Shown: positions 1,994-16,024 of the stretch, piece by piece
How positions within the stretch are numbered: the stretch's first letter is position 1
How the letters are laid out: each line of letters starts with the position of its first letter
Virus record (IMG/VR): IMGVR_UViG_3300028833_000094
Coordinates: 32,001 to 96,000 of that record
Reading direction: 5' to 3' (one strand)
Source: a virus
Taxonomy: Duplodnaviria > Caudoviricetes
DNA: 64,000 nucleotides
Made by a program: the position numbers and the translations under genes
The notes under the pieces: generated by a model
Seen by the model: only the letters and a program-made list of their open reading frames with translations
Databases searched by the model: none
Told to the model about the DNA's origin: nothing

Positions 1994-2007
1994 TTATAAA
2001 AATGGAG

Positions 2008-2738: not shown

Positions 2739-3424
2739 AATCTTAAAGGGTTAAAGTAGAGTAAAAAGGAAGGAGGACAGCCTAAGGAGATGCTATAATA
2801 AGCATGACTGTCCTTATCCTTCCAGAGAGACTTACTCCTTGTATTTCTTAAAGTAAAAGGAAAGGCAATTGCAAGGCTAAAGTACTTTCATTAATTAATA
2901 AGGGAAGTAAGCCTTGCTTGAGCCTTTCTTGGTTATATATCATTTTCCAGTTAATTGAGAAGTTATACTTTATACCAATGTATTTTGATTCGTATAAGGA
3001 CTCTATTGAGGGGAAATAGATTTGTCTTTTTGTAATAATTCCGTAAAAGGAAAACCAAAAATGAGATTTTCAGGAAATGAAAAGCCCCAAAATACCTTAG
3101 AAATAAGTATATGATATCTATATAGTGTGTAGATAAGGTGAGTGAAAAGTGTTATAGATTATGTGAATATTGAAGATTTGAGAGTCTTGAAAATAATGGT
3201 AAAGTGAGAGGGGAGGGTATTTTGTGTCCTTTTCCTCCACTAAATCATTTAATCTATATTACAAATAGACCATAATATGTTCTTTTTGTACGATTTCAAT
3301 ATTTATCATCTTTTTCTTATTTACACCTTATTATATATATAGAGGGCTAAGTCGATTGTCCCAAGGGCAAAAAATAAAATAAACAGTGGAATTAAGACCT
3401 TGAGGTAAGTCGCAAGGACCCTGA

Positions 3425-3463
3425 GAAAAAAATATAAAGGGGGTGGACATAGCCACTCCCCTT
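3425..3463 (-). terminator. intrinsic terminator
   Basis: minus strand AAGGGGAGTGG..CCACCCCCTT followed by TATATTTTTTT. Confidence 0.7.
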
Positions 3464-3485
3464 ATTGAAGTCAATCTACAAAGAC

Positions 3486-3887
3486 TTATCCACGCTTTGC
3501 CAGATACTCTTTCTTGGCATCTTCAGACTCCCATACATCATATCTCACAATGCTGGGCTGACCTGCCTTCTTCAGTTCCTGACCAAAGATGAGATTAATC
3601 TTAATCTTGTCACCTTCGTCATAACCATTCTGGACAGCCTTACCAGCCTTCAACTCAATGCTGGAACCATCCTTAAAGGGAATTGTAAGACGCAGAGATG
3701 TAGAACCATCACTGAACTCTGCAGAAGTAACTTCTGCTTCATCACCCTGGATGTCCTTGTAATTGAACATCTCTGTTGCTTCGCAGATTTCTTCAAGGGT
3801 AAATGCATCACCTGTGGGAACCCACTCTGACTTGTTGAACACTGAGTTGTTTGCTACTGCCAGGAAACTTTTGCTAATAGTTGCCAT
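3486..3887 (-). CDS. small beta-rich protein, paralog of 4726..5088
   Basis: shared MAT..VFNK..EW..TL.E..DG..L+++IP..DG..E.D.I pattern; biased codon use suggests high expression. Confidence 0.75.
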   Translation of the reverse strand: MATISKSFLAVANNSVFNKSEWVPTGDAFTLEEICEATEMFNYKDIQGDEAEVTSAEFSDGSTSLRLTIPFKDGSSIELKAGKAVQNGYDEGDKIKINLIFGQELKKAGQPSIVRYDVWESEDAKKEYLAKRG

Positions 3888-4080
3888 AATCTTTAAACTT
3901 TAAACTGTTAATAAATAAATGTGAACTGTGTGGGGAGACTAAGTCAAAGACTATCAATCTCCACCAAAAAAGGTAAGACGTGATATTTTGTTAAAGACAA
4001 GGACTATAACTTTAACTAAAGAAAGAAAATAAATAAAAGAAAGAAAGGTATAAATAAGTCGAAAATAAAAATGAAAAAAT

Positions 4081-4120
4081 AAAAAAAGGGAAATCTAACC
4101 CCAAGGCCAGACTTCCCTTC
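4081..4120 (-). terminator. intrinsic terminator
   Basis: minus strand AAGGGAAGTCTG..TAGATTTCCCTT-TTTTT. Confidence 0.7.
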
Positions 4121-4130
4121 TTTTTCTAAG

Positions 4131-4334
4131 TTACCATACTTCTACTACCGAATGATAATATCCATTTGATATTATTCGCCAATTTTCACCTGACTGAGGA
4201 GCCCTCACATCATGCAAAGCTTCCCTTATGCCAGGAGCAAGTGTCCATAAGAAAGTTTCATTAGGAACAATCTTTGCATCTGGATATTTCTCCAGCCATT
4301 TCTCAGGAGAGAAATAATGTTCTATATACACCAT
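4131..4334 (-). CDS. hypothetical protein
   Basis: 67-aa ORF directly after upstream stop. Confidence 0.65.
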   Translation of the reverse strand: MVYIEHYFSPEKWLEKYPDAKIVPNETFLWTLAPGIREALHDVRAPQSGENWRIISNGYYHSVVEVW

Positions 4335-4335
4335 A

Positions 4336-4665
4336 TTAATCTAAAATCCAAGTTTTGTTACTGAATATATTATCTTCCCATTCATCAGACAGATGATATG
4401 TTTCCACAGTTACACTATGTAACCATCCATTAATGTTGATATCAGAGGTTATCTGAAGAGTCCTATGATTCTCATCAAGCCATTTTGGATCAGAATATCT
4501 AGCATATCTGCCCATTCTGTTATTAGCAGCCTCATCATAGATACTTTGCATCAACTGCTGAGCAGTCTCTAAATCTTCAACAAGTCTTACAAGAAATGAT
4601 GATTCACTTCCTAACTCATGCTTATGGTGGCATGTAATAACATACCATAATTTCTTTTCTTCCAT
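4336..4665 (-). CDS. hypothetical protein (probable start MEEKK at 4665)
   Basis: ATG at 4665 follows the TAACCCTTTAA leader motif. Confidence 0.7.
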   Translation of the reverse strand: MEEKKLWYVITCHHKHELGSESSFLVRLVEDLETAQQLMQSIYDEAANNRMGRYARYSDPKWLDENHRTLQITSDININGWLHSVTVETYHLSDEWEDNIFSNKTWILD

Positions 4666-4725
4666 ATTATTGTATATTAAAGGGTTAGTAAATGCCCTGC
4701 CTGTCACACAGGGCTATATAATATC

Positions 4726-5088
4726 TTAGATACACTCACCTGTTATATATCCATGAGACTTACCCATAGCCTTTTCCACACAGAATTTAACAGTCTTCAG
4801 GTCAATCTCATCATCTTCCTCAAAGTCATTCTCATAGGAGAGGTCAAACTCCCCTTCACCATCCTCCAGAGGGATAGACATCTTCAAGAAGATGCCCCCA
4901 TCCTTACGTTCTTTGGCAATTACTGTAGGATTGCCAGTTACATGAGCAAGTGCAGGGTCAATCAGCTCTGCATACTCACTGAGAGTCAGAGTCATAGACT
5001 CATCAGTTTTCCACTCACGCTTGATATACTGAGCCTTGTTGAACACTTCCTTAAGTTCAGCTACTTTCTTTGCACTAAATGTTGCCAT
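4726..5088 (-). CDS. small beta-rich acidic protein, paralog of 3486..3887
   Basis: protein motif similarity plus shared DNA words (cttgttgaacact; gttgccataat). Confidence 0.75.
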   Translation of the reverse strand: MATFSAKKVAELKEVFNKAQYIKREWKTDESMTLTLSEYAELIDPALAHVTGNPTVIAKERKDGGIFLKMSIPLEDGEGEFDLSYENDFEEDDEIDLKTVKFCVEKAMGKSHGYITGECI

Positions 5089-5213
5089 AATACAAAACCT
5101 TCACATACAACTAGGCACAATGATTTAGCCCAGAGCCTCTTAGCGGAAGGTACTGGCTTTTGGTTGTTAATATAAAGGGTTATTGTGTTTCTCAGAGTGT
5201 AGATGTTAAGGGA

Positions 5214-5330
5214 TCAGATGTCCCACTCATCAAGTGCTTCTTCTGGAGTGTATCCATGATCCATACACCAGATTACTTCTGCCTGCAGATTATATTTCTC
5301 TGCTTTAGCAATTGCTTCTTCTCTTGTCAT
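5214..5330 (-). CDS. 38-aa protein (not in ORF track) with GYTPEEALDEWDI motif
   Basis: MTREEAIAKAEKYNLQAEVIWCMDHGYTPEEALDEWDI*, starts 3 nt after upstream stop. Confidence 0.7.
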   Translation of the reverse strand: MTREEAIAKAEKYNLQAEVIWCMDHGYTPEEALDEWDI

Positions 5331-5332
5331 AG

Positions 5333-5668
5333 TTATAACCTGTTGAATTCTTCTAAGTCAAAATTACTGTAGCTCACTTTCCTAAGAGGTTTATTGAACC
5401 ACAGATGCAGCAAATACCAGTTAACCTGGGCTCTCAGTCTCTGCTTTCTGAGATAATCATCAGATACCTCAATGCCTGAGAGAGCCTGATCCATAGCATC
5501 AATATATCTGCCTTCCTCTCTTTTAGCCCTCTCTTTGATGAAGGCATAAAGATCCAACACATCACGCTTGCCTCCTTGTTTTCTGTAATCCTCAAAGGAG
5601 TGGATAAGGATGCTCTCTTCTACTTTACCTTCAAAGAGAACGTTCTGATCTAATACTTGCATAATCAA
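5333..5668 (-). CDS. hypothetical protein
   Basis: about 110-aa ORF in array. Confidence 0.7.
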   Translation of the reverse strand: MIMQVLDQNVLFEGKVEESILIHSFEDYRKQGGKRDVLDLYAFIKERAKREEGRYIDAMDQALSGIEVSDDYLRKQRLRAQVNWYLLHLWFNKPLRKVSYSNFDLEEFNRL

Positions 5669-5691
5669 TACTCTTTAATCATTGTTATATT

Positions 5692-5889
5692 CTAATCATT
5701 AATAGGAAGATGCTCCGCTCTAGTCTTAAAAACATACTTCACACCTATATTACTCCAGTACTGCTGTGCTTTACGCCCTGCAGTTTGAGCATCTTGTTTG
5801 GTTTTATAAAACTCACCTTCAAGATAATCTTCATATTCAAAGTTACCATTATTGTAGTCAAACTTGAATAATAGTCTATATACTTTCAT
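5692..5889 (-). CDS. hypothetical protein
   Basis: 65-aa ORF, tightly packed. Confidence 0.65.
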   Translation of the reverse strand: MKVYRLLFKFDYNNGNFEYEDYLEGEFYKTKQDAQTAGRKAQQYWSNIGVKYVFKTRAEHLPIND

Positions 5890-5890
5890 C

Positions 5891-6154
5891 TTAGTATTCT
5901 TTAATTATTGTTGTTTTACCTGTATCAAGAAGCTGCTGAATTCTGAGTGTAGACTCATCAGCACTGTCAGATAGACTATCAATAAGGTCAGCAACCTCAC
6001 CAATAGTAGCACAATCATTCCAATCAATCTCCATCGGAGGATTAGGTAACATACCTTCTTCAGTTGCAAGGTCTTCCTTGGTCTTACACCATGTGAATGC
6101 CAAGAAGCAAGTACTATTCTTCCTTACTTCCAATACTTCTCTAAAATCTGCCAT
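5891..6154 (-). CDS. hypothetical protein
   Basis: 87-aa ORF, tightly packed. Confidence 0.7.
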   Translation of the reverse strand: MADFREVLEVRKNSTCFLAFTWCKTKEDLATEEGMLPNPPMEIDWNDCATIGEVADLIDSLSDSADESTLRIQQLLDTGKTTIIKEY

Positions 6155-6165
6155 AATTTTACTTG

Positions 6166-6561
6166 TTATTTGAATAATCCTTTTACTATAATACCCTCTA
6201 TTTCTGCTTCTGCTTGGTCTAAATATTTGTAATACAGAGTCCTATCAGTTCTTCTGAGAGCTGCATGTTTTCTTCTCAATAATTCTCCCACAGTGTGGAA
6301 GCCATTATCTTCCTCCCATGCTACATAGTACACATTACCTATCATAGTAAGTTTAGAGCTCAGAAAGAACAATCCAGAACCTTCCTCAAGAGTGACAAAG
6401 AGTTTTATCCAACCAGGATGCCTATCTCCATAAGGAGCAATCCTAACACTCTCAACATTGTAATCTACAACCTTGTCACCAGGATATACCTTATGACCAT
6501 TACTTGCAAATGCATCAATAGCTGCATTCAAAATGTCAATTACTAATTCTTTCGTTTCCAT
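6166..6561 (-). CDS. hypothetical protein (probable start METKE)
   Basis: ORF in array; ATG just after upstream TGA. Confidence 0.7.
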   Translation of the reverse strand: METKELVIDILNAAIDAFASNGHKVYPGDKVVDYNVESVRIAPYGDRHPGWIKLFVTLEEGSGLFFLSSKLTMIGNVYYVAWEEDNGFHTVGELLRRKHAALRRTDRTLYYKYLDQAEAEIEGIIVKGLFK

Positions 6562-6566
6562 AATAT

Positions 6567-6689
6567 TCAATTGTTAAATGATTTGATTTTCCAATATTGA
6601 TTCCCATAAGCAAACCTGTAATTGTCTGCCTGCTTCCAAGAAGGAAAGCTACCTATGTAGCCCCCTTCAGAGTCATAGAGTCTATACAT
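6567..6689 (-). CDS. 40-aa hypothetical protein (not in ORF track)
   Basis: MYRLYDSEGGYIGSFPSWKQADNYRFAYGNQYWKIKSFNN*; TAATG overlap with upstream stop. Confidence 0.65.
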   Translation of the reverse strand: MYRLYDSEGGYIGSFPSWKQADNYRFAYGNQYWKIKSFNN

Positions 6690-7039
6690 TATAATTCCTC
6701 CTCAACCTGTTTCTTGATAAAGACAACCTTTGGAACTTCTATGCAGCTAGTCTTAATAAACCGTACTCTGCTAATATCAGAGGCAATAATGTCAATTGTG
6801 GAACTCTCATAATACCCAGCAGGAAATTTCTTATTACCTACTACTGGCTGGATAGTCAGCTTATAAGTGTCCTTACAATATGCTCCAAGAATAGAGCACA
6901 CCTGTTCTTCAGAAAGCCTTGTTTCAAGCAGAGTATCAATAGCTCTCTGCTGTTCATGAGTCATAGGATCCTCATAGGATACCTTAACGATGAAATACTT
7001 TCTTTCCAGTCTCTGTGAATTGAATCTTACTGTAATCAT
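6689..7039 (-). CDS. hypothetical protein
   Basis: 116-aa ORF after TAACCCTTTAA leader. Confidence 0.7.
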   Translation of the reverse strand: MITVRFNSQRLERKYFIVKVSYEDPMTHEQQRAIDTLLETRLSEEQVCSILGAYCKDTYKLTIQPVVGNKKFPAGYYESSTIDIIASDISRVRFIKTSCIEVPKVVFIKKQVEEEL

Positions 7040-7065
7040 GATTTTATTATTTTAAAGGGTTAATA

Positions 7066-7224
7066 CTATTTATTCTTTAAAGGTTTGAACTCAGTGGTTT
7101 CCCACATTTTTCTTTTAAGCTCCCAGTAAGCTCTATAACCTTCTGAGAGTGTAGAAAACTGATGCCTAGTACTAGCTGACATCTTACCAGCTTTCCAATT
7201 CTCGATAAAATTCTTGATTTTCAT
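7066..7224 (-). CDS. hypothetical protein (probable start MKIKN at 7224)
   Basis: ATG follows TAACCCTTTAA leader. Confidence 0.65.
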   Translation of the reverse strand: MKIKNFIENWKAGKMSASTRHQFSTLSEGYRAYWELKRKMWETTEFKPLKNK

Positions 7225-7292
7225 AATTCTGTTTTGTTTTAAAGGGTTATAGTGCAGCTCACTTTGTATAAGGTGGAGCTGCATGACCTTGA

Positions 7293-7454
7293 TTAGTCTT
7301 CAGAATAATCTTCTTCCTTAATCATGTAAGCATGAGTATTCTTCCACTGTGTTTCAATGTAAGACTCAGCTTCTTCTCTAGTCTCAAAAGGCATGTGGTC
7401 CTCAAACCATTTTTCTGTACCTTTCAGTCTGCTGTAAACCTGAAATAGTATCAT
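7293..7454 (-). CDS. 53-aa hypothetical protein (not in ORF track)
   Basis: MILFQVYSRLKGTEKWFEDHMPFETREEAESYIETQW..SED*, starts just after upstream stop. Confidence 0.65.
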   Translation of the reverse strand: MILFQVYSRLKGTEKWFEDHMPFETREEAESYIETQWKNTHAYMIKEEDYSED

Positions 7455-7455
7455 A

Positions 7456-7674
7456 TTACATTCTCATTATTTGAGTAATAGTGAAACTCGTATAGAGCTT
7501 CATCAATCTAACAAACTCTTCCTTAGCAGCCTGCCTATTAGGACAAGTAATCCTAATGTTTGCACTCTTACTGAAGAAGCACACTGAATATGTGCTCTTG
7601 TAATGATTCTCATCTTTACGGATGGTGATGGTAGCACTCTCGGTCTTTACCATCTTATAGCTTCTAATTTTCAT
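7456..7674 (-). CDS. hypothetical protein
   Basis: 72-aa ORF, tightly packed. Confidence 0.65.
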   Translation of the reverse strand: MKIRSYKMVKTESATITIRKDENHYKSTYSVCFFSKSANIRITCPNRQAAKEEFVRLMKLYTSFTITQIMRM

Positions 7675-7675
7675 A

Positions 7676-7870
7676 TTATTTGTTATTTAAATTGTTAGTA
7701 ATAGTTTCATCAATGAGAGCAATCATTCCAGCTCCCAAGAACAGAGTAACAACAACACCATAGATGCTATTGGAGAACAGTGCAGTAATGATAGTAGCCA
7801 TACTGCCAGATACCAGAACAGCTCCCCTGAGGAGAGCTGCCTGTAATGATTTGCTTATAATTCTTTTCAT
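7676..7870 (-). CDS. small membrane protein (2 TM)
   Basis: two hydrophobic segments. Confidence 0.65.
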   Translation of the reverse strand: MKRIISKSLQAALLRGAVLVSGSMATIITALFSNSIYGVVVTLFLGAGMIALIDETITNNLNNK

Positions 7871-7880
7871 ATTATTAAGA

Positions 7881-8261
7881 TTATTCCCAACCCATCATTC
7901 TCGCATGATTGTACCAAGCAAGCTCTTGGGCCATCCATTCTCTGTACTCTTCCTCATATTCCAGGTCATTTATCATTTGCTGGTATGCTTCAGCAGAATA
8001 ATATTCTAACATAGTTTCCATATCAAAGATAGACATACCTACTTCATTACAGAAGTCTACAGCATCTACTCTTTCACAGAAGAGTATTACATCATCAACA
8101 TCCCAGTCAGTACTGTTGTCTTGATAGATAGAAAGAACTGGAATCAGATTATTGCCCTTGACAGCATACTGCACATTGGCAGTGCATTTGTAGGGATTAC
8201 CATTGACCTGCTTAATCAAATCCAGAATAAACTGGTCATCATAATTTGTTAAATTTACCAT
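7881..8261 (-). CDS. acidic hypothetical protein
   Basis: 126-aa ORF, D/E-rich C-terminus. Confidence 0.7.
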   Translation of the reverse strand: MVNLTNYDDQFILDLIKQVNGNPYKCTANVQYAVKGNNLIPVLSIYQDNSTDWDVDDVILFCERVDAVDFCNEVGMSIFDMETMLEYYSAEAYQQMINDLEYEEEYREWMAQELAWYNHARMMGWE

Positions 8262-8278
8262 TTTCTTTATTATTTATA

Positions 8279-8536
8279 TTATAAGAATGCAGCAATCATT
8301 ATAGCCTGAATAGGTGTCCAAGCCATTAAGAATATACAAATATTAGTTACCCATTCCTTCTGATTATCAATGAAGGCAATAGGCAATAGCAGAGAGACAG
8401 CAACAATAGAGAGTATTACACTGGATACAATCTCCCTATTGTAAGGTCTTAACACACCAGCAGCAAATGCTGCAATACCCAACATTAGGGCTGTACCAAT
8501 TATGGCAAGCCCTAATACTTTCATGAATTCTTTCAT
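8279..8536 (-). CDS. small membrane protein (3 TM)
   Basis: three hydrophobic segments; TAATG overlap with upstream stop. Confidence 0.7.
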   Translation of the reverse strand: MKEFMKVLGLAIIGTALMLGIAAFAAGVLRPYNREIVSSVILSIVAVSLLLPIAFIDNQKEWVTNICIFLMAWTPIQAIMIAAFL

Positions 8537-8973
8537 TAGATACAATATTTGAGTGAATAGATAGTCTCATCATAGGCTTCCTGCATCTCAGCGAGGTAAT
8601 CCTGATAGTGTTCCCATTCCCACTCCTTAGAGGGAATATCCCATTCATTACAGGCCTCCTCAAAGGAATGCCCTAATCTCATCCAAGCCTCAATCTGAGG
8701 TCTGTAAGTGAGTGCCCAATGCTCCAGAGATTCATCATTCAGAGTCTGATAGTCAGAGACAAGCAGTCTCATCCAAATCTTATCAACATCCCAGAGTGAG
8801 ATAGAAAGAAGGGAATCTTCAGGGTCATCTACTATTCCACAGCAGTCAGCACCAACTGCTATATCATTGTTGATCATCTTCTGGATAGCTTCCAGAGCTA
8901 CTGTTGCTGGCATGTCATTCCAGCCAAGTTTCTTGACAATCAGCATAATTGCTGAGAACTCTTGTTTGTTCAT
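8536..8973 (-). CDS. acidic hypothetical protein, first gene of the leftward array
   Basis: 145-aa ORF containing GHSFEEACNEWDI, similar to the 38-aa gene at 5214..5330. Confidence 0.75.
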   Translation of the reverse strand: MNKQEFSAIMLIVKKLGWNDMPATVALEAIQKMINNDIAVGADCCGIVDDPEDSLLSISLWDVDKIWMRLLVSDYQTLNDESLEHWALTYRPQIEAWMRLGHSFEEACNEWDIPSKEWEWEHYQDYLAEMQEAYDETIYSLKYCI

Positions 8974-9183
8974 TGCTGTTATTTATTAGGGTTGTGACAG
9001 TCTTTCCTGCCTCAGTAGTTGAGTTTGTAGCATTTGTAGCATTAGTGATGCTTCAGTCTCAGTTGCTGAGGATGAGTAATTCTTTGCTATATTATTACTG
9101 AGAATCAGTCAGTCTGCAAAGACCCAGGGGGGATGAACCCCAACTGTCAAAGACAGGGGGAGGTGTGATATGTTATGACACAT

Positions 9184-9309
9184 CTTTACACATATCTCAT
9201 ATTTTTATCTATTATCTCCCACCTTTACACATACTTTGCATTTTTCCCAAGTCCCCACGCCTTTACACATACCCAATATTTTTTGGAATATCTCCCCTTT
9301 TACACACAT
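9184..9309 (+). repeat. four iteron-like direct repeats (C/T)TTTACACA(T/C)A, about 38-bp period
   Basis: copies at 9184, 9223, 9261 and about 9298, at the point where gene orientation switches. Confidence 0.7.
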
Positions 9310-9393
9310 TCTTCATTCCACTTAGAGCAATTCTTAGCTATAGAACAGTCCAATCTTTTTATAATATTTTTGTGCATTATAAATAGTAGAAGT

Positions 9394-9786
9394 ATGGGAA
9401 ATATAAAGTTGCATAACATGGAAGTAATGGAGCAAGCTAAGTATAGGGCAAGACAAATGGATACTTGGCCTTCTCCATTAGAAGAAAGAATGAAAGAGTT
9501 CTTAGACAGGCACTATGTGGAATATGAGTCTCAAAAGATATTCTATATCTATGCTGATGATGGATGGATAATAAGGTATTATATAGCTGATTTCTATATA
9601 CCAGAGAAAGAGGTTATTATAGAGGTAGATGGTAAGTTCCATGATGAACACAAGCTACATGACAAGAACAGGACTAAGGATATTCAAGAACAGTATCCTT
9701 CTATAGAGGTATTAAGGTATAGGTGGAAAGATTTGTCTGATATGGATAAAATGGATGATCTATTGTGTAGGATAAACGCTATATAA
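9394..9786 (+). CDS. DUF559/Vsr-like PD-(D/E)xK endonuclease
   Basis: YIADFY..IIEVDGKFH..DKNRT..VLRY motifs; ATG 9394 follows TATTTTTG at 9365. Confidence 0.75.
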   Translation: MGNIKLHNMEVMEQAKYRARQMDTWPSPLEERMKEFLDRHYVEYESQKIFYIYADDGWIIRYYIADFYIPEKEVIIEVDGKFHDEHKLHDKNRTKDIQEQYPSIEVLRYRWKDLSDMDKMDDLLCRINAI

Positions 9787-9838
9787 TTGATGTAAAGCAT
9801 TAAATCATAGGGATTTATACAGTTTTCTCGGCATTATT

Positions 9839-9869
9839 TTTGGTGAAATAACTTTATTTTGTACCTTTG
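9839..9869 (+). promoter_or_regulatory. Bacteroidota housekeeping-sigma promoter
   Basis: TTTG-N19-TACCTTTG. Confidence 0.75.
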
Positions 9870-9900
9870 CATCCAAGAAGTTTAACTAAAACTTGATACG

Positions 9901-10212
9901 ATGAAAGGGTTAAAGGAGTATCTTAGGAAACATGGTAGACACTTTACTGAGGAACTGGCTCATGCTGTCATGGGGAATACTTGGACCTATGATGAGATAG
10001 ATGCCATCATCCAGAAGAAGGTATACTATAATGTTTCTGGTTGTACTAAGGGGGATATAGTTTATTTCTGTAATGGAATGAATTTATATACCAAGCATGA
10101 TATTATAAAGAATGTGATTCCCATGCTTATGACAGTAGATGCCTATGAGGATATATTTACCTTATGGGCCAAAGTATATGGGGATTGCTTTGATTTTACC
10201 AAGTTTGTATAG
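9901..10212 (+). CDS. hypothetical protein, paralog of 55542..55958
   Basis: YLRKHGRHFTEELA..WTYDEID..DIVYFCN vs YLNNYGCHFNKKLC..YTKEQVD..DACYVAN. Confidence 0.75.
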   Translation: MKGLKEYLRKHGRHFTEELAHAVMGNTWTYDEIDAIIQKKVYYNVSGCTKGDIVYFCNGMNLYTKHDIIKNVIPMLMTVDAYEDIFTLWAKVYGDCFDFTKFV

Positions 10213-10261
10213 AATAATTTTCTGTTTTATAATTATTTAAGAAATTTTGTTCAAGTAAAAT

Positions 10262-10292
10262 TTTGGTATTATATTATTAGTTTGTATCTTTG
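10262..10292 (+). promoter_or_regulatory. Bacteroidota housekeeping-sigma promoter
   Basis: TTTG-N19-TATCTTTG. Confidence 0.8.
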
Positions 10293-10296
10293 CAGC

Positions 10297-10722
10297 GACC
10301 CTTGGAAGTAGTAGTTCCATGTTCAGGCTATTAAGGTCCAGTGGATATATAGAGCCTTAGAAGTCGGGTTGTAAGTGCTTATAGCACTGAGATATTCAGG
10401 ATACTCAAGCCCCGATAGGTCAAAAAATGCTTGGTTATAAGTCTGGTGTCCCGCCTAACTACTATGGGAAAGAGGCTGAGGGTAAAGTGGACATTAGGGA
10501 GTTCTAAAGCTTACGAGTTAAGTTTATACTGACCGCCCAGATGAAGTGCCAAGTTAATGAGGTTAGGAAAATCCTTTAGGGACTTCTTATACCTTTTTGA
10601 ATAGTAAAATATCTCAGGCTATGCAGCTGTTGTGAAACACCTGTGTACTTACAAATACTAGGATACAATTTAAAAAGTGTCTTCAAGATAAGAGAGGCCT
10701 AAGTGTAGGCTTCTCTTTCTTT
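10297..10722 (+). ncRNA. candidate large structured ncRNA (about 420 nt)
   Basis: between consensus promoter and terminator, no ORF of 60 aa or more, many nested helices. Confidence 0.55.
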
Positions 10723-10724
10723 AT
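10690..10724 (+). terminator. intrinsic terminator
   Basis: AGAGAGGCCTA-AGTG-TAGGCTTCTCT-TTCTTT. Confidence 0.75.
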
Positions 10725-10796
10725 TTCTTAGCATTATCCTAAGATTCATTGTACCTAAAAGATTGTTTCTTATTTTTGCAACAAAATAAGAAGAAT

Positions 10797-11405
10797 ATGA
10801 ATAAATATTTTATTGCAGCTATAGTGGTTCTCTTTGCTACCATAGGATTTATGTGGAAGCAAGTAAGGGATGCAAATGAGAAATGGAAGGTTTCTGAGGG
10901 TAATGTAAAGGCCTATGCATCCATGTTTGACAATAGCAAGAAACAGAATGCTGCTTTGCTATTGACTGTAGATCAGCTTGAATATTTCAAGGATTCTGTA
11001 CTTCAGGAGCTTGATGCTACCAGGAAGGAACTGAAGGTAAAGGATAAGGACTTAAAGGCTTTACAGCAGGTTAAGTCCAGTTTCTCCAGGACAGATACTA
11101 TTACAATAACCCAGGTGGATACTTTGTTTAAAGAACCCTCCTTGGCTATTGATACTGTATTGGGAGATGAATGGTATAAGCTTAATCTAGGACTTAAGTA
11201 TCCTTCTACGATTGCAGTAAAGCCATACTTTAAGAGTGAGAAACATATCGTAGTCTCCAGTAAGAAAGAGACTGTTAATCCTCCAAAGAAGTTCTTTCTT
11301 TTGAGATGGTTTCAGAAAAAGCATCGAGTTCTTCATATAGATGTTGTTGAGAAAAATCCTTATGTGAGTGATGAAACTAGTAGATACGTTGAGATTATCA
11401 GGTAA
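10797..11405 (+). CDS. membrane-anchored coiled-coil protein, DUF6549/spanin-like
   Basis: N-terminal TM (YFIAAIVVLFATIGFM), coiled coil, C-terminal KKFFLLRWFQKKH..VVEKNPY; promoter TATTTTTG at 10771. Confidence 0.6.
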   Translation: MNKYFIAAIVVLFATIGFMWKQVRDANEKWKVSEGNVKAYASMFDNSKKQNAALLLTVDQLEYFKDSVLQELDATRKELKVKDKDLKALQQVKSSFSRTDTITITQVDTLFKEPSLAIDTVLGDEWYKLNLGLKYPSTIAVKPYFKSEKHIVVSSKKETVNPPKKFFLLRWFQKKHRVLHIDVVEKNPYVSDETSRYVEIIR

Positions 11406-11431
11406 CGGTTTGTTTGTTTTTTGTGAATAGA

Positions 11432-12616
11432 TTATCTATTTGAATTTTCTGTTTTTGTTTTTCCTCCTGCCTGTGAAGGTGGGAGGTTTTTAATGGCTTC
11501 CACTACTGTCTCATCCAATAGCTTGGCATATACCTGTTCTGTAATCCTGGTAGAGGAGTGACCACATATTCTGGATACTATCTGCATGGGTACCCCTTCA
11601 TTTAATAATAAGGTAGCTCCTGTATGTCTTGCCCAATGTGTACTCAGGGGTTTGTCTATTCCAGATGATTGTGCTACTACCTTCAGGTACTCATTGTACT
11701 TGACATTGGATATAATGGGTAGTCTGCCATTATATTTCATCAGGATATTCCAGGCAGGGGATAGGATAGGGATGGTAAAGGGTTTATCTGTCTTCAGCCT
11801 GTGTCCAGTATAGACCTTCATATCTTTAATCTCTTGTACAGATTTTATATTAAAGTATCTCAAATCCGAATAGCTTAGACAGGTATAGGTTTGGAAAATA
11901 AACACATCTCTGACTTTCTCCAGACTTTCAGTAGGCATCTTAGAGGTTTTTATCTTATGGAATTCTTCTGGAGTCAGGCATTTCTCAAGACTCTTTATGT
12001 CCCTGCCTTTATCTATACAGATATTCTTATAGGGATTCTTAGTCATGTGACCTTCATTAATAGCATCCAAGATGACAGAATTAAGATGCCTGTGGTAATT
12101 ATGCCATTTAGTATAGAGACACATTCCCTTACTTGCCAGGTAATTGTCAAAAGCTATAAGATTTAATTCATTTACATCCTTGAATCTCTTAATACCTCCC
12201 CATTCTTTAAAGACTTTCAGAAACAAGTTGTACCTGTCTATGCTTCTTGGAGCCTTACCATATTTCCTTATATCAAATCTCTGATGACAATAATCCAGGA
12301 AATTAATATTCTTTCTCTGAATCTTTAACCTGGCTGGTATGGAGAATATATCTATATTCCCCTCATTGGTCATATCAAGGAGTATCTGCCTTACATCAGT
12401 AAGCATCTTATCCAGAGTACTGCTAATCTGAAGGATATCAGGACAATTCAGGATCTTCCCTTTCTTCCACTGGTTTATATACAGCATGATACCAGTGGCA
12501 ATGTACTTTTGCTTATAGTTATAGGTAATTCTCATCTCTACTGCAGACTTTACAGTAAGGGATGCATTCTTTCTTCTGTTGAACACAAAAGTGATTTGAG
12601 GCTGTTTGTTAATCAT
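11432..12616 (-). CDS. int: Bacteroidota-type tyrosine integrase (arm-binding, SAM-like core-binding and catalytic domains)
   Basis: N-terminal VEMRITYN..KYIATGI arm domain; RDVFIFQTYTCLSYSDL (Ser in place of first Arg, as in IntDOT-like enzymes), HWARHT, GHSS, catalytic Tyr in VYAK. Confidence 0.92.
   Translation of the reverse strand: MINKQPQITFVFNRRKNASLTVKSAVEMRITYNYKQKYIATGIMLYINQWKKGKILNCPDILQISSTLDKMLTDVRQILLDMTNEGNIDIFSIPARLKIQRKNINFLDYCHQRFDIRKYGKAPRSIDRYNLFLKVFKEWGGIKRFKDVNELNLIAFDNYLASKGMCLYTKWHNYHRHLNSVILDAINEGHMTKNPYKNICIDKGRDIKSLEKCLTPEEFHKIKTSKMPTESLEKVRDVFIFQTYTCLSYSDLRYFNIKSVQEIKDMKVYTGHRLKTDKPFTIPILSPAWNILMKYNGRLPIISNVKYNEYLKVVAQSSGIDKPLSTHWARHTGATLLLNEGVPMQIVSRICGHSSTRITEQVYAKLLDETVVEAIKNLPPSQAGGKTKTENSNR
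11463..11491 (+). terminator. intrinsic terminator with GUGA loop, overlapping the integrase 3' end
   Basis: CCTCCTGCCT-GTGA-AGGTGGGAGG-TTTTT. Confidence 0.75.
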
Positions 12617-12716
12617 ATTTAAAAAGTAAAATAGGTAGTTAACTTCTCTTTTGAAGAAGCTTAGTGTAATAAATAAAAAAGTAGGGTGTAATAAATATGT
12701 AATAAATTAAGGGCTA

Positions 12717-12751
12717 AAAAATGGATGATAGGCCTGTATTTCCTACCATCC
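12717..12751 (-). terminator. terminator after tRNA-Lys
   Basis: minus strand GGATGGTAGG-N9-CCTATCATCC-ATTTTT. Confidence 0.65.
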
Positions 12752-12764
12752 CTTGGGTTCTTAG

Positions 12765-12837
12765 TACACCCGCAGGGGTTCGAACCCTGGACACCCTGAT
12801 TAAGAGTCAGGTGCTCTACCAACTGAGCTACGGGTGC
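12765..12837 (-). tRNA. trnK: tRNA-Lys(CTT)
   Basis: GCACCCG/CGGGTGT acceptor, D-arm GCTC-AGTTGGTA-GAGC, anticodon arm CCTGA-CTCTTAA-TCAGG, T-loop TTCGAAC; GC-rich and host-like. Confidence 0.95.
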
Positions 12838-12930
12838 ATGTTGAGGGGGTATGTAATGAATTTTAGGAAGAGCTGTCATAAATATGTAATGAATTATATA
12901 AAATACGTGAAGATTGTAGGGGTTTGGTTG

Positions 12931-12938
12931 CAAAGATA
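12931..12938 (-). promoter_or_regulatory. promoter -7 element for tRNA-Lys
   Basis: TATCTTTG on the minus strand; divergent TATCTTTG at 13037-13044 on the plus strand. Confidence 0.65.
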
Positions 12939-13160
12939 GTGAATAATCCTGAGATAGGAGAAGGATGGGAACCTTAAATAATTTTAAAATTAGGATAAAA
13001 TTACAAAGAAGATTAGGTTATTTAAAGAAGATTGTTTATCTTTGTGGCGTATTTCATAACTTCATAAGTTATTGAGAAATAGGATAATAACGAAAAAGGT
13101 TAAACTATTACTTTAAGACAATTTTCATTATACTAATAATTAAATTAAAAGGATACAATC

Positions 13161-13376
13161 ATGGCAATATCAAAAAAACAGGAACAACAGTGGCAGGCTC
13201 AGGATGATGCCAGAGTCATGGCCCAGTATCAGGAGATTATCAATGACAAGGCAAGGATGGGCAGAGCCATCAAGGAAGCCAGTAAGCAAGCCTCAGACTT
13301 AAGTAAGAGGGCTAATGCAATGAAGAATGCCGCCAATGTGAAGGCAAATGGTGGCACTCTCAGGAGGAAGAAGTAA
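13161..13376 (+). CDS. small basic helical protein
   Basis: 71 aa, ends ANGGTLRRKK. Confidence 0.75.
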   Translation: MAISKKQEQQWQAQDDARVMAQYQEIINDKARMGRAIKEASKQASDLSKRANAMKNAANVKANGGTLRRKK

Positions 13377-13408
13377 TCTGGTTATTAGACTTCCATATAT
13401 AATAAGGT

Positions 13409-13837
13409 ATGTCAGTAGAAGAGAAGAACCAGGAATATGATTCAGAGCCAGTGAAATACTGTGCCAGATGTTTCTCTTTGAAGATAAAGTATGAAGAGAG
13501 CATTGATGCTGAATGCTGCGGTGACTGTGGAAGTTCTGATATATTGGAATCCTCTATAGAAGAATGGGAGAAGAAGTATGAGAGGAAGTATGGGAAGAAG
13601 TTTGTCCAGAAGCAGGAAGATCCTCAGAAGAGCTTTATCTTCAAGATGTCTCTTGACAAACTAAAGCTCAAAGTCTACGAGAGCAGTAACTGGAGAGAGA
13701 TTATCAAGGCCATCTATCCCAAGTTTCCAGGAGGCTATGGAAAAGCAGACTCCATCATACTATTCTTTGATACACTCATCAAGCAGAATAAACTGAATGA
13801 GCTGAAATTATTTTTGTATAAGCATTTTAAATATTAG
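13409..13837 (+). CDS. Zn-ribbon protein
   Basis: CARC..CGDC Cys pairs. Confidence 0.7.
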   Translation: MSVEEKNQEYDSEPVKYCARCFSLKIKYEESIDAECCGDCGSSDILESSIEEWEKKYERKYGKKFVQKQEDPQKSFIFKMSLDKLKLKVYESSNWREIIKAIYPKFPGGYGKADSIILFFDTLIKQNKLNELKLFLYKHFKY

Positions 13838-13863
13838 AATAATTAATAAAAATATTAGAAACT

Positions 13864-14223
13864 ATGGAAGAGCAGAAGTTAAAGAGCAAGGAAATTAAGA
13901 TGAATCCCAATGCAGAGGCAAAGCCTCAGCCTGCTGAGAATCAGAAACTCACTTATGAGCAGTTGAATCAGGCTTGTATGGAGCTGAGTCAGCAGAACCA
14001 GCAGATGCAGACCTATATCAAGAAACTCCATCAGCAGATGGGGCAGATGAATGCTCTCTTGGAGACAAGACGTATGGACTATCTCTTTAAGGTGATTGAG
14101 CTTCACACCAAGTATGAGAAATGGTTTGATTCTGATTTTGTCCTGAAGTGTGCTGAAGAGGTACAGGAATCCCTGACTATCCCTGAGGAAACAGAGCAGG
14201 AAGATAACAAAGAGCAAAACTGA
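13864..14223 (+). CDS. coiled-coil protein
   Basis: KLTYEQLN..LSQQNQQ..RMDYLFKV heptads. Confidence 0.75.
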   Translation: MEEQKLKSKEIKMNPNAEAKPQPAENQKLTYEQLNQACMELSQQNQQMQTYIKKLHQQMGQMNALLETRRMDYLFKVIELHTKYEKWFDSDFVLKCAEEVQESLTIPEETEQEDNKEQN

Positions 14224-14225
14224 TT

Positions 14226-14666
14226 ATGGAGAGTGAAGTTCAGACAAAGAAAGAAGGATGGAACTGGTCAAGGCATAAGCCCAATAATGTACTCAACATT
14301 GATGCCAGTTCCAGCATGGACTTCTTCAAATGGTGGTGTACCCTGATACACCCCTTTGTAGAACTGACCCCCAGGGAGATAGATGTCATAGCCTCCTTCC
14401 TCAAACAGAGGCTTGAACTTTCCCAGCAGGTTCCTCCCGAACTGGTGGACAGGCTTTTGATGAGCAATGAGACCAAGAGTAAGGTTATTGAAGACTGTCA
14501 TATTACACAGTCACACTTCTATGTGGTGATGAGTACCTTAAAGAAGAAGAAAGTAATCTCTGACAAAGGTATCAATCCCAGGCTGATTCCTAATGTAAGG
14601 AAGGATGACAACGGAGTATTCCAGTTACTGATTCTCATTAAGAATAACCAGAAGAATGACCTATGA
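14226..14666 (+). CDS. probable winged-helix DNA-binding protein
   Basis: LTPREIDVIA..ITQSHFYVVMSTLKKKKVI..INP pattern. Confidence 0.55.
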   Translation: MESEVQTKKEGWNWSRHKPNNVLNIDASSSMDFFKWWCTLIHPFVELTPREIDVIASFLKQRLELSQQVPPELVDRLLMSNETKSKVIEDCHITQSHFYVVMSTLKKKKVISDKGINPRLIPNVRKDDNGVFQLLILIKNNQKNDL

Positions 14667-14967
14667 AGAAATCATAGCTCAGGTATCAGAGTCTACGGGA
14701 GTGTCCAGGACATTAGTAGATAAGACCTATAAGGCTTATTGGAAGGCAGTCAGGGAGCATATTACATCCCTTCCCTTAAAGGAAGAACTTACAGATGAAG
14801 AGTTCCTTAATCTCAGGCCAAATGTCAATATCCCCTCTATAGGCAAGCTCTATGTCACGTTAGACAGATACCATAACCTAAAGAAGCAGTTCAAGCTTTA
14901 CTATAAGAATTATAAAGGAAAAGACAAATATAAAAAGGATAGCAATGATAAAGATAAAGAAGATTAA
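14656..14967 (+). CDS. HU/IHF-like DNA-binding protein
   Basis: MTYEEIIAQVSESTGVSRTLV..VNIPSIGKL. Confidence 0.7.
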   Translation: MTYEEIIAQVSESTGVSRTLVDKTYKAYWKAVREHITSLPLKEELTDEEFLNLRPNVNIPSIGKLYVTLDRYHNLKKQFKLYYKNYKGKDKYKKDSNDKDKED

Positions 14968-15373
14968 ACCACTGTTCACTAATTTGGTAACAACAGGTGA
15001 GAAGTATGAGCAGGATATGTATGATGCACATGGGCTGATTGAATGTAAGAAGGGAGATCTTAAGACCTATCAGATAGTAGTGGCAGTAGGACCACTGGTA
15101 AGAGACATCCAGCCTGGCGATAAGGTGATGATTGATGTGATGAACTATGCAGTCAGGAAGTATGACCCTAACTCCATTAAGAATGACATGGATATGAATA
15201 AGGTCATTGACTTCAAGTTTAACTGGGTTCAGGTAGAAGATGAGAAGGGAGAGCCGCAGGATTGCCTGTTCCTAAGTGACAGGGACATTCTGTTTTCATT
15301 TGAAGGAGAAGAAGTTCAGGGTAATAAGAATCCTATTATAACTCCAGAGAAGCCTAAAATCATTATAAGCTGA
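14945..15373 (+). CDS. GroES-like co-chaperonin
   Basis: KIKPL..VVAVGP..IQPGDKV..LSDRDIL match the GroES fold. Confidence 0.7.
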   Translation: MIKIKKIKPLFTNLVTTGEKYEQDMYDAHGLIECKKGDLKTYQIVVAVGPLVRDIQPGDKVMIDVMNYAVRKYDPNSIKNDMDMNKVIDFKFNWVQVEDEKGEPQDCLFLSDRDILFSFEGEEVQGNKNPIITPEKPKIIIS

Positions 15374-15393
15374 GTAGAAGTTGTTTTTGGGAG

Positions 15394-15427
15394 AAGAGGC
15401 CTGGGCTATTTGGCCTGGGCCTTTTTT
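15394..15427 (+). terminator. intrinsic terminator
   Basis: AGGCCTGGGC..GCCTGGGCCT-TTTTT. Confidence 0.7.
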
Positions 15428-15466
15428 AGATTTGAGAATTTTGTAGAGGTAAATTGAGAATTTTGT

Positions 15467-16024
15467 ATGAAGCTTATTAGATACGAGGATTACCAGATAA
15501 AATTAGCAGATGAGGCATTCTTGGTGAGACCTATCAGGAGACTGTTTCATCAGGACAGGAGTGAAAAAAAGGAAAACTTTTGGAGACAGATATCCTTTAT
15601 GTACTTCATGGTAAGTCCTTCCAGCAGCTACTCTTATATTCTTGACATGGAAGAAAGAGCAGCAGAGATTATCAAGCAGGAAGGATTACCTAGTGACTTT
15701 AAGCCTTCAGATTTATTGAAGGAAGCTATGGAGATATACAGGAAGCTGACTATTACTCCTTCACAGAAACTGTTGGAGTCATCTCTTATTGCAGCAGATA
15801 CTGTTTCAAAATTTCTCAGGGACCCCGACATTCTGACAGCAGAGGACAGAAATGGTAAACCCAAGTATCAGATTTCATCCATTACAGCAGCCTTGAAGAA
15901 TGTGGAAGGAATAGTCAATTCCCTTCAGACACTTCAGAAGAAGGTAGAGCAGGAACTGGAAGCAGATGAAGGAAAGGCAAGAGGTTCTCAGGAATTGACC
16001 TTAGGAGATATAGGATTGGATTAA
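15467..16024 (+). CDS. probable terminase small subunit
   Basis: helical 185-aa protein immediately upstream of TerL; assignment by position. Confidence 0.5.
   Translation: MKLIRYEDYQIKLADEAFLVRPIRRLFHQDRSEKKENFWRQISFMYFMVSPSSSYSYILDMEERAAEIIKQEGLPSDFKPSDLLKEAMEIYRKLTITPSQKLLESSLIAADTVSKFLRDPDILTAEDRNGKPKYQISSITAALKNVEGIVNSLQTLQKKVEQELEADEGKARGSQELTLGDIGLD

Follow-up and report, generated by a model that had tools for sequence, protein, structure and literature searches.

A probable integration module at a tRNA-Lys gene in a crAss-like phage of rumen Prevotella

The window, that is, the whole 64-kb stretch of viral DNA analyzed here, carries a tyrosine integrase gene next to a complete tRNA-Lys gene, with three copies of a 10-bp repeat on either side of the tRNA. 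The features found or predicted at this locus are the following:

10749..11405, plus strand: homolog of crAss001 gp27 (“lysis regulatory protein”), 44.5% identity by tblastn, convergent with the integrase
11432..12616, minus strand: tyrosine integrase, 394 aa, from its ORF, Pfam, PHROG integrase families, and catalytic motifs
12698-12707, 12687-12696, and 12665-12674, minus strand: putative P' arm, three 10-bp direct repeats of arm type lying on the integrase side; sequence in integrase orientation, ATTTATTACA
12716..12751, minus strand: intrinsic terminator of the tRNA, 10-bp stem, 9-nt loop, U6; fold −17 kcal/mol, z −2.5
12764..12837, minus strand: complete tRNA-Lys(CTT), probable crossover (core) region of attP; ARAGORN, and Rfam at 71 bits (gathering score, 29)
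12885-12894, 12874-12883, and 12852-12861, minus strand: putative P arm, far from the integrase, three arm-type sites, ATTCATTACA, ATTTATGACA, and ATTCATTACA in integrase orientation
12931..12938, minus strand: Bacteroidetes-type −7 promoter box TAtcTTTG, from sequence, reading toward the P arm, tRNA, and integrase

As the initial annotation had claimed, the integrase beside the tRNA-Lys is full length. Its ORF comprises an arm-binding domain (PF17293 Arm-DNA-bind_5, residues about 25-87, 25.0 bits against a cut-off of 22.6), a SAM-like core-binding domain (PF13102 Phage_int_SAM_5, residues about 105-198, 34.9 bits), and a catalytic domain (PF00589 Phage_integrase), with the catalytic residues R236, H327-x-x-R330, H353, and Y363 present; judged from the sequence without a structural alignment, K275 and K278 are the candidates for the catalytic lysine. 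Integrase and Xer structures in the PDB match the protein, the similarity to solved integrases being confined to the catalytic C terminus. In its composition the gene resembles the phage (GC content of 0.372 versus 0.376; observed/expected CpG of 0.02 versus 0.17), which agrees with the earlier description of the integrase as being as CG-poor as the rest of the genome.

The completeness of the tRNA-Lys(CTT), as well as the promoter and the terminator that had been ascribed to it, also held up. The terminator escaped a simple terminator scan because its loop is 9 nt long, and folding revealed it; a near-identical hairpin is found in the attL of L253 (see below). A TAnnTTTG box occupies the equivalent spot in most related attP sites (L003, L005, L006, L008, L009, L011, and L154). 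Given that AAG accounts for 55% of the Lys codons, the phage tRNA probably also serves translation. The repeat TGT(A/C)AT(A/G)AAT lies on the plus strand at 12665, 12687, 12698, 12852, 12874, and 12885, with a minus-strand copy at 8643. Against 1.63 expected, the window has these seven matches, a number that none of 100 shuffles reached, and the only six plus-strand copies in the 116-kb genome all fall within 230 bp around the tRNA. The six repeats, their 22+11 spacing within both triplets, and the triplet-to-triplet distance of 187 bp were all located as first described. The 12-bp spacers differ between the two triplets, which argues against a recent duplication of one from the other.

The 116-kb genome that contains the window was assembled as a circle, with an overlap of 126 bp between the contig ends. 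A second, independent contig of the same phage (113.9 kb) represents a different circular permutation, and attP is intact there too. Rumen samples that contain the phage include those of ODAI014364270.1 and SRR33675022. Since the site is intact in two contigs of different permutations, it appears in its free attP configuration, and with both arms beside one core the initial reading of an intact attP stands. The major capsid protein of this phage is 62.8% identical to that of IAS virus and 60.8% identical to that of crAss001, and capsid, TerL, and portal match the crAss-type families phrog_11589, phrog_6681, and phrog_6547 (E values from 1e-104 to 1e-129). The genes for TerL, the major capsid protein, and the portal lie downstream of the integration module and the gp27 homolog lies on its other side, so that phage genes do flank both sides, as had been proposed. 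Every named organism among the 78 records matching the gp27 homolog is a crAss-type phage; this gene also adjoins the integrase in L106-L109, L208, L255, and the L012 relic, and in relatives its presence identifies the phage side of attL. On these sequence comparisons, the assignment to the crAss-like phages is supported, and we classify the phage as Steigviridae related. A near-identity search of GenBank phages with the 2.5-kb region returned a sole match of 56 bp.

Ten viral loci with integrases that are 61-99% identical share one layout, consisting of a promoter, an arm doublet, a tRNA or tRNA 3' fragment, a terminator, an arm doublet followed by 12 nt and a single site, and the integrase. 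The attP core in these relatives is either a whole tRNA (Lys, Glu, or Val) or a 3' fragment of tRNA-Ser. The P' arm sites lie 91, 80, and 58 nt upstream of the integrase ATG in the window and 92, 81, and 59 nt upstream of it in relatives and in host attL junctions, and this distance is also fixed in lineages that have a tRNA fragment only. Every related attP site has the P-side arm doublet, which host attL junctions lack. The arm motif itself varies by lineage, from ATTYATKACA to ATT(A/C)TGTACA, and a shared motif is not paired with a closer N-terminal domain (L154, with the same motif, is only 60% identical). Among the integrase domains, the core-binding domain is the most divergent (44-53% identity versus 72-80% for the catalytic domain), which fits the differing tRNA cores. 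Two side observations are that short-read contigs frequently break inside the tRNA and that relatives have a weak RepL-like gene near the integrase.

The initial annotation had named the host tRNA-Lys(CTT) gene as attB and had suggested searching host genomes with the phage tRNA. In this search, 61 species genomes of rumen Prevotella(ceae) proved to have a tRNA-Lys that matches it at 74/74 positions, and identity including flanks reaches 84 bp in L014 and L064. Together with the junctions of relatives at this gene (L255, L253, L082, and L096), the identity bears out the proposed target. Strains of Prevotella (Xylanibacter) brevis and ruminicola, which are cultured candidate hosts, carry identical target tRNAs. 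Unrelated integrases (about 28% identity; L041, L069, and L057) also use tRNA-Lys(CTT) as a hot spot in Prevotella.

Host-phage junctions at tRNA-Lys, which the earlier proposal would entail, were found in relatives, whereas the window’s own phage was not seen integrated. In metagenome contigs and in relics within metagenome-assembled genomes (MAGs), the repeat triplet and an integrase (79-85% identical) are connected to Prevotella-type DNA and tRNA-Lys. L255 (SRR30693780_2887) reads, in order, host methyltransferase, host promoter, tRNA-Lys, terminator, arm sites, full-length integrase (79%), and gp27 homolog, and L253 (ERZ842375 NODE_1800) reads FtsK, LolA, host promoter, tRNA-Lys (74/74), phage-like terminator, arm triplet, and an integrase (85%) with a stop at residue 294. 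The upstream flanks of both resemble, at 70-74% identity over 1.9-2.6 kb, the flanks of tRNA-Lys loci that are unoccupied in Prevotella MAGs. Two further loci of the same attL type, L082 and L096, are relics interrupted by IS insertions, and the L012 relic has an internal deletion. The attL of L253, L255, L082, and L096, like that of L208, which goes with sister phage G405 at tRNA-Ser, retains the integrase-side triplet only. That the triplet stays with the integrase in attL, and lies at a fixed distance from it in relatives, favors the original interpretation of the repeats as arm sites. Scans for the arm-doublet pattern in genome, viral, and metagenome collections returned attP and attL forms and no attR of the Lys lineage, the remaining matches being mostly chance AT-rich sequence; neither this attR nor the integrated window phage appeared in the genome and metagenome scans, and no intact prophage was found in species representatives. 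The three MAGs that have relic junctions yielded no capsid gene, and a search of 401 genomes of that genus gave one distant match only (26% identity). This near-absence of the capsid gene from host genomes suggests that intact prophages are rare or poorly assembled.

An intact prophage is available in a sister phage, G405, whose capsid protein is 85% identical to that of the window phage. G405 (117.5 kb, IMG/VR class “provirus”) lies whole within the 148-kb Prevotella-like contig Ga0139311_1000077, between bacterial genes, at tRNA-Ser(CGA), and it is collinear with the window phage genome opened at attP. Its attP is known from the free-form contigs L209 and L210, and both attL and attR were also recovered: over bases 1-1624, L209 is 100% identical to one end of the prophage, and over bases 1592-5056 it is 99.7% identical to the other. 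The common core is 33 bp, running from the T-loop to the tRNA 3' end plus 9 bp, the tRNA gene is rebuilt after integration, and attR keeps only the arm opposite the integrase side. Both host flanks map to either side of tRNA-Ser in one unoccupied Prevotella genome, and among 31 Prevotella genomes with an identical tRNA-Ser(CGA) no integrase adjoins it. We considered whether the 148-kb contig could be a chimera and judged this unlikely, given a core of only 33 bp, flanks that bracket tRNA-Ser in the unoccupied genome, and independent free-form contigs that match both ends at 99.7-100%. In silico, then, integration within this crAss clade is shown for relatives of the window phage.

We consider it likely that this region of the window serves a temperate, Steigviridae-related crAss-like phage of rumen Prevotella as its integration module. 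In the mechanism we propose, the integrase, a heterobivalent enzyme, would use its N-terminal domain to bind the arm-type sites, three of 10 bp on either side of tRNA-Lys(CTT), and its other two domains, core-binding and catalytic, to work at core sites within the tRNA sequence. The attP (about 12660-12900) would recombine with the identical host tRNA-Lys(CTT) gene, giving an attL of host promoter, tRNA-Lys, phage terminator, P' arm, and integrase and an attR of phage promoter, P arm, tRNA-Lys, and host terminator. In attL, transcription of the rebuilt host tRNA gene would end at the phage terminator before the integrase is reached. When the phage is free, this tRNA forms a gene running from promoter to terminator and probably also supplements translation. 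Two complete tRNA copies after integration are a plausible outcome. Phage and host share an identical tRNA, so that sequence alone does not place the crossover in tRNA-Lys; by analogy with G405, it would fall between the T-loop and the 3' end. We predict that the integrase binds the repeats and that the window phage’s own enzyme is active.

It could be argued that the module is real but disused, that is, inherited and decaying in a phage that is lytic or episomal and keeps the tRNA for translation only. The gene content of the neighborhood bears on this argument. The initial annotation had noticed no repressor or excisionase nearby, and Pfam (E ≤ 0.01) likewise recognizes neither among the 29 neighboring ORFs of 80-16024, a survey that small divergent regulators could escape; homologs of Xis2c, Xis2d, and Exc were not recognized by Pfam in these 29 ORFs either. 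The same ORFs include a Myb-like DNA-binding protein (755-1069) and a weak S26/S24-like match (9901-10212). Disuse would be in keeping with this lack of recognized regulators, with the failure to find an integrated copy of the exact phage, with the degraded state of several host junctions, and with the weak RepL-like gene of the relatives. However, the integrase ORF is intact with all catalytic residues and is fully adapted to phage composition, and the attL junction of the relative at 79% integrase identity includes that gene at full length. Moreover, between the window and L003 (integrase identity, 86%) the arm sites are kept, whereas the surrounding DNA, spacers included, has diverged. On balance, we regard disuse as improbable.

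The repeats could alternatively be promoter elements, or sites for a regulator of the tRNA, the integrase, or a divergent operon, as they lie between promoter and tRNA and between tRNA and integrase, where regulators bind too. We think this very unlikely, since the distance between triplet and integrase is fixed even where only a tRNA fragment is present, the triplet goes along with the integrase into attL without the other arm, and the integrase has an arm-binding domain. There is similarly little to recommend the view of the integrase-tRNA-repeat block as a passenger, be it a separate integrative element of small size, a chimeric assembly that includes host DNA, or the end of a host island. 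While the use of tRNA-Lys(CTT) by unrelated integrases and the tendency of short-read contigs to end in the tRNA might invite such a view, both arms beside one core make up the attP form rather than attL or attR, the circle closed by the site is a whole 116-kb phage, the module occupies the same genome place in four crAss genomes (capsid identity, 66-85%), the G405 prophage is an entire phage opened at this site, and the integrase is CpG depleted like the phage. Finally, a Xer/dif-like role of the integrase, mainly in resolving multimers or aiding plasmid-like maintenance, is hardly credible: the prototypic crAssphage has been reported as a phage-plasmid (PMC10983915) and relatives have weak RepL matches, but arm-type sites and an arm-binding domain mark integrases rather than Xer resolvases, and relatives exist in integrated form.

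Going beyond integration by a temperate phage, it is tempting to speculate that a whole Steigviridae-like clade of rumen Prevotella is actively temperate, retargets itself by swapping the tRNA cassette of attP, puts the tRNA to dual use, and sustains lysogeny without a canonical repressor or excisionase. The cassettes found between conserved arm modules, either whole, host-identical, promoter-driven tRNAs (Lys, Glu, and Val) or stacked 3' fragments (Ser type), are compatible with this scenario, which we put forward as a possibility that falls short of likely. If it were true, integration would duplicate a host tRNA gene and a new kind of lysogeny switch would be implied.

The crAss-like phages rank with the most abundant viruses of the gut, and their characterized families are usually called incapable of lysogeny. 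For one branch of this group, the attachment site is now resolved to the base, the host target is defined, and a sister prophage is known that is both intact and integrated, so that classical integrative lysogeny exists inside the Steigviridae-like radiation. In practical terms, the attP and attB sequences, the integrase, and the candidate cultured hosts are now concrete enough for an assay, the identity of attB makes host assignment possible, and a crAss-like contig that stops at a tRNA sequence may be a prophage. The integrase family could also become a tool for site-specific integration in Prevotella, which is hard to engineer.

The initial annotation’s view of Crassvirales as generally non-integrating is sound as a generalization but not as a rule, since lysogeny modules had already been predicted in some crAss-like phages (PMC7511551, PMC8776839), among others by Yutin 2018, as cited in PMC7511551. 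A temperate life has also been suggested for the epsilon group, with its repressor and anti-repressor, and from incomplete prophages in Parabacteroides (PMC11054128). Our results share with these suggestions the conclusion that some Crassvirales can lysogenize; whereas those earlier reports rest on gene annotation or incomplete prophages, here attP, attL, and attR of a sister phage are resolved to the base and the architecture of the site is defined. The persistence of crAss phages has so far been explained by phase variation, carrier states, and plasmid-like life (PMC8375218, PMC10983915, PMC11054128). With crAss001 and IAS virus, the window phage shares a capsid at 61-63% identity, homologs of TerL, portal, and gp27, and a similar genome size. 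Two papers describe crAss001 as lacking lysogeny genes (PMC6235969, PMC7511551), and its syntenic gp27 region is without integrase or tRNA, unlike that of the window phage. The GenBank phage integrases that match best, at 36% identity over 93% of the protein, belong to LoVEphage, BI-TP1, and PV4-TP1, phages of 57-72 kb whose names mark them as temperate Bacteroides/Phocaeicola phages rather than as crAss-like, and no crAss-named phage is among the best 15 of 36 matches.

Heterobivalent phage integrases that target tRNA genes include those of L5 (tRNA-Gly), HP1 (tRNA-Leu), and P4 (tRNA-Leu). Like integrases of the lambda Int type, that of the window is a three-domain tyrosine integrase with both arms in attP and one with the integrase in attL, and, as in tRNA-targeting phages, the core overlaps the 3' part of a tRNA gene that is rebuilt (in sister phage G405). 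In contrast to those phages, the attP of the window carries a whole tRNA with its own promoter and terminator instead of a 3' fragment, and its arm sites, in contrast to the lambda type, are all direct repeats of one orientation with 22+11 spacing in both arms. NBU1 targets the 3' end of a tRNA gene. Its integrase IntN1 and the related-type IntDOT have the Pfam domain architecture of the present enzyme and Bacteroidota hosts as well, but they belong to conjugative or mobilizable elements, whereas the window integrase belongs to a 116-kb podovirus-like phage. The mechanism is a textbook one, and it is the group in which it occurs, the crAss-like phages, that is unusual.

The integration module, read in the initial annotation as the intact attP of a temperate crAss-like phage with a host tRNA-Lys gene as attB, comprises the following elements.

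11432-12616, minus strand: integrase ORF of 394 amino acids, with the Pfam domains Arm-DNA-bind_5 (residues 25-87), Phage_int_SAM_5 (residues 105-198), and Phage_integrase
12665, 12687, 12698, 12852, 12874, and 12885, plus strand: 10-mer TGT(A/C)AT(A/G)AAT
3′ of tRNA-Lys, minus strand: tRNA terminator, a 10-bp hairpin followed by U6
12764-12837, minus strand: tRNA-Lys(CTT), called by ARAGORN and supported by the Rfam tRNA model (71 bits)
12931-12938, minus-strand sequence: Bacteroidetes-type promoter box TAtcTTTG

The integrase is full length, as annotated, with its catalytic residues in place (R236, H327-x-x-R330, H353, and Y363), and it proved as CG-poor as had been claimed (CpG observed/expected ratio, 0.02 versus 0.17 for the phage; GC content, 0.372 versus 0.376). 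Genome-wide, the ratio of 0.17 is an extreme depletion, at 37.6% GC. The adjacent tRNA-Lys(CTT) is indeed complete, with its own promoter and terminator. The 10-mer occurs seven times in the window versus 1.63 expected, a count reached by 0 of 100 shuffles, and the six copies around the tRNA are its only plus-strand copies in the whole genome. They form the two triplets described initially, one on the integrase side (P′ arm) and one on the far side (P arm), each with 22+11 spacing and 187 bp apart; the 12-bp spacers within the two triplets differ from each other, which suggests selection on the repeat sites rather than recent duplication. A second TAtcTTTG box (13037-13044, plus strand) faces away from attP toward a plus-strand operon starting at 13161, and related loci conserve its counterpart (ACAAAGATAAACAAT on the integrase strand), which places attP between divergent promoters. 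Pfam recognized no repressor or excisionase among 29 neighboring ORFs, in agreement with the initial annotation; near the module, regulators were hinted at only by a 103-amino-acid ORF (9901-10212, plus strand) with a weak signal-peptidase S26 match (S24/S26 clan) and a 104-amino-acid ORF (755-1069, minus strand) with a Myb-like DNA-binding domain.

Core proteins mark the genome as crAss-like: its TerL, portal, and major capsid protein match crAss-type PHROG families (E values of 1e-104 to 1e-129), and the capsid protein shares 62.8% identity with that of IAS virus and 60.8% with that of crAss001 (both Steigviridae). The final 126 bases of the 116,467-bp record, of which the window covers bases 32001-96000, repeat its bases 6-131, so the assembly closes as a circle. 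An independent metagenome contig of 113,881 bp (ODAI014364270.1) carries the same phage at 96-98% identity and is opened at window position 12731|12732, within the tRNA terminator hairpin, with the rest of the attP site intact. Circular closure and this second contig with an intact site argue that the window derives from a free phage genome and not from a prophage with host flanks. Antisense within the plus-strand virion block lies a gene for 542 amino acids (50099-51727, minus strand) with a weak glucosaminidase (GH73) match.

The integrase family comprises 2007 proteins at E<=1e-60, and integrases 61-99% identical to that of the window are encoded on ten viral contigs. Upstream of all ten, the order is promoter box, arm doublet, tRNA or tRNA 3′ fragment, terminator hairpin, doublet plus 12 nt plus single site, and integrase. 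The integrase-side triplet starts 91, 80, and 58 nt before the ATG in the window and 92, 81, and 59 (or 60) nt before it in three relatives (L003, L006, and L008) and two host junctions (L082 and L096). In integrase orientation, the arm motif reads ATTYATKACA in the lineage associated with tRNA-Lys (Lys lineage) and ATT(A/C)TGTACA in the others. The core varies: the window and L003 have a whole tRNA-Lys(CTT), L109 and L111 a whole tRNA-Glu(CTC), L011 a whole tRNA-Val(CAC) with an additional fragment, and L005-L009 and L154 one or two tRNA-Ser-like 3′ fragments. Since L154 combines the window's arm motif with a Ser-type core, arms and cores are modular. Within the integrase, divergence is greatest in the core-binding domain (44-53% identity, versus 60-68% for the N-terminal and 72-80% for the catalytic domain). 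A crAss capsid gene (66-85% identity) is present on every one of the three long contigs that encode this integrase (108-123 kb); the module thus belongs to a crAss clade and is very unlikely to be a stray passenger.

Tandem tRNA-derived pieces occur in several related attP sites (L008/L209, ~1600-1680; L006 and L007, upstream of the integrase; L011, 5600-5810). One 3′ fragment is present twice in L006, two different Ser-type fragments lie in L008, and a fragment adjoins a whole tRNA-Val in L011; such additional pieces may be traces left by target switching or may provide alternative cores. A few kilobases from the integrase, two relatives encode a RepL-like protein of 154-155 amino acids (faint PF05732 match; L107, 9402-9866, and the 126-kb contig of GCA_016648615.1, 2426-2893), which recalls RepL of the phage-plasmid crAssphage; no RepL match was found among the window ORFs tested.

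The proposed attB is supported by host genomes: in 61 species representatives, almost all of them rumen Prevotella/Prevotellaceae MAGs and one a cultured strain (Xylanibacter brevis ATCC 19188), tRNA-Lys(CTT) matches the phage tRNA at 74/74 positions, and identity extends to 84 bp with the loci L014 and L064. Similarly, the attP tRNA-Glu of L109 matches many genomes of the same genus at 73/73. The tRNA-Val of L011 reaches at best 95% identity among sampled genomes. Unrelated integrases (27-31% identical) adjoin the same tRNA-Lys(CTT) in other Prevotella MAGs (L041, 4819-5958; L069, 6291-7388; L057, 7751-7999); it is a general hot spot for integration.

Host-phage junctions at tRNA-Lys(CTT), the expected trace of integration, were found in relatives, and none was found for the window's own phage. 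These junctions, together with a tRNA-Ser relic, read as follows.

L255 (Logan SRR30693780_2887): host methyltransferase, host-type promoter (TTACCTTTGCACCCGC), tRNA-Lys(CTT), terminator, arm sites, full-length integrase (79%), gp27 homologue
L253 (ENA ERZ842375 NODE_1800): FtsK, LolA, DUF5687, host promoter, tRNA-Lys (74/74), terminator, arm triplet, integrase (85%)
L082 and L096 (Prevotellaceae MAGs RUG172 and RUG403): host gene, host promoter, tRNA-Lys, identical arm triplet, first ~14 integrase codons, IS21-like element
L012 (Bacteroidaceae MAG): tRNA-Ser(CGA), arm doublet, integrase with an internal deletion, and a homologue (65%) of window gene 10749-11405 at a distance of 3.6 kb

Over 1.9-2.6 kb, the upstream DNA of L253 and L255 shares 70-74% identity with the flanks of Prevotella MAG tRNA-Lys loci that are unoccupied, which identifies it as chromosomal. 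The L253 terminator is almost identical to that of the phage, and its integrase equals the window's over the 20 N-terminal residues read, with a stop at residue 294. Window gene 10749-11405 is a homologue of crAss001 gp27 whose 78 matching phage records are crAss-type wherever the organism is named; the L012 relic thus derives from a crAss-like phage. L012 also holds a fragment (12848-12970) homologous to window gene 50099-51727. IS elements interrupt relic integrases in RUG172 and RUG403 (L082, 6200-6741; L096, 1-200; L214, 1900-1993); one resembles IS21 and encodes a transposase that begins MIEMDQKEQ, and the contigs terminate inside the IS. RUG172 has a second degraded integrase, adjoining tRNA-Glu.

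Genome and metagenome scans revealed neither the window's own phage in integrated state nor an attR of the Lys lineage. Contigs of this integrase family typically break within the tRNA (L002, L004, L106-L108, L109, and the 126-kb GenBank contig; short reads), as expected for sequence shared with the host, and such breaks hide junctions. The crAss capsid gene did not turn up in the relic-bearing MAGs, and 401 genomes of the genus yielded one distant match only (26% identity; G239:C203:23247-24407, a 513-amino-acid open frame in a Prevotella-genus genome; E value, 3.5e-36), which may belong to another crAss-related prophage.

A complete integrated example is the sister provirus G405 (117,540 bp; IMG/VR class provirus; CheckV, 100% complete), whose capsid protein and integrase are 85% and 65% identical to those of the window. 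Its exact integrase product was found on JGI contig Ga0139311_1000077 (148,409 bp), where a host promoter and a complete tRNA-Ser(CGA) precede the integrase, with genes typical of bacteria ahead of them (PRPP synthetase, thioredoxin/AhpC, endonuclease III, ECF sigma factor, YkuD, and MazG). Free-form contigs L209 and L210, which come from two further samples, encode the same protein. Bases 1-1624 of L209 match one prophage end at 100% and bases 1592-5056 the other at 99.7%, with a common core of 33 bases (tRNA-Ser T-loop to 3′ end, plus 9 bp), thus giving a complete set of attP, attL, and attR; the crossover core is the first tRNA fragment only. The prophage is collinear with the window genome opened at attP, starting beside the P arm (window ~14900) and ending at the integrase. 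Its target tRNA-Ser is identical in 31 rumen Prevotella/Xylanibacter ruminicola genomes, and both host flanks map on either side of this tRNA in Prevotella sp. tc2-28. Near the integrase end of the prophage, outside the structural block, there is a homologue of the portal (85% identity to window 39342-41759; G405:C1, ~111000-114000; L208, 12364-14778), either a rearrangement or a second copy.

The relatives' junctions and the G405 sites support the initial interpretation of the module, and it is quite likely that this attP is functional and targets tRNA-Lys(CTT) of Prevotella. The module is best explained as a heterobivalent integrase system of the classical kind, in which Int would bridge arm and core sites in attP and recombine within the tRNA sequence common to attP and attB. 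The attL would keep the host promoter and tRNA, ended by a phage-supplied terminator before the P′ arm and integrase, and attR would consist of phage promoter, P arm, tRNA, and host terminator. Because attP holds the entire tRNA, we infer a whole tRNA gene in both Lys-lineage junctions. In the free phage, tRNA-Lys is a normal gene; since the genome has only one other tRNA, tRNA-Arg(CCT), and AAG and AGG make up 55% of Lys and 34% of Arg codons, a second, translational role besides attachment is plausible.

Characterized crAss families are considered non-lysogenic or rarely lysogenic (PMC8375218; PMC10983915; PMC11054128), and integrases are "rarely detected" in Steigviridae (PMC13503771); predicted lysogeny modules and one temperate crAss-like phage have been reported (PMC7511551, PMC8776839). 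Unlike the window, crAss001 has no integrase or tRNA beside gp27. The nearest GenBank phage integrases, at 36% identity, belong to LoVEphage and BI-TP1, temperate Bacteroides phages not named crAss-like. The proposed mechanism matches the one used by lambda-type and IntDOT/NBU1-type integrases. The module is a well-resolved case of a known kind of system, in a phage group where it was unexpected.
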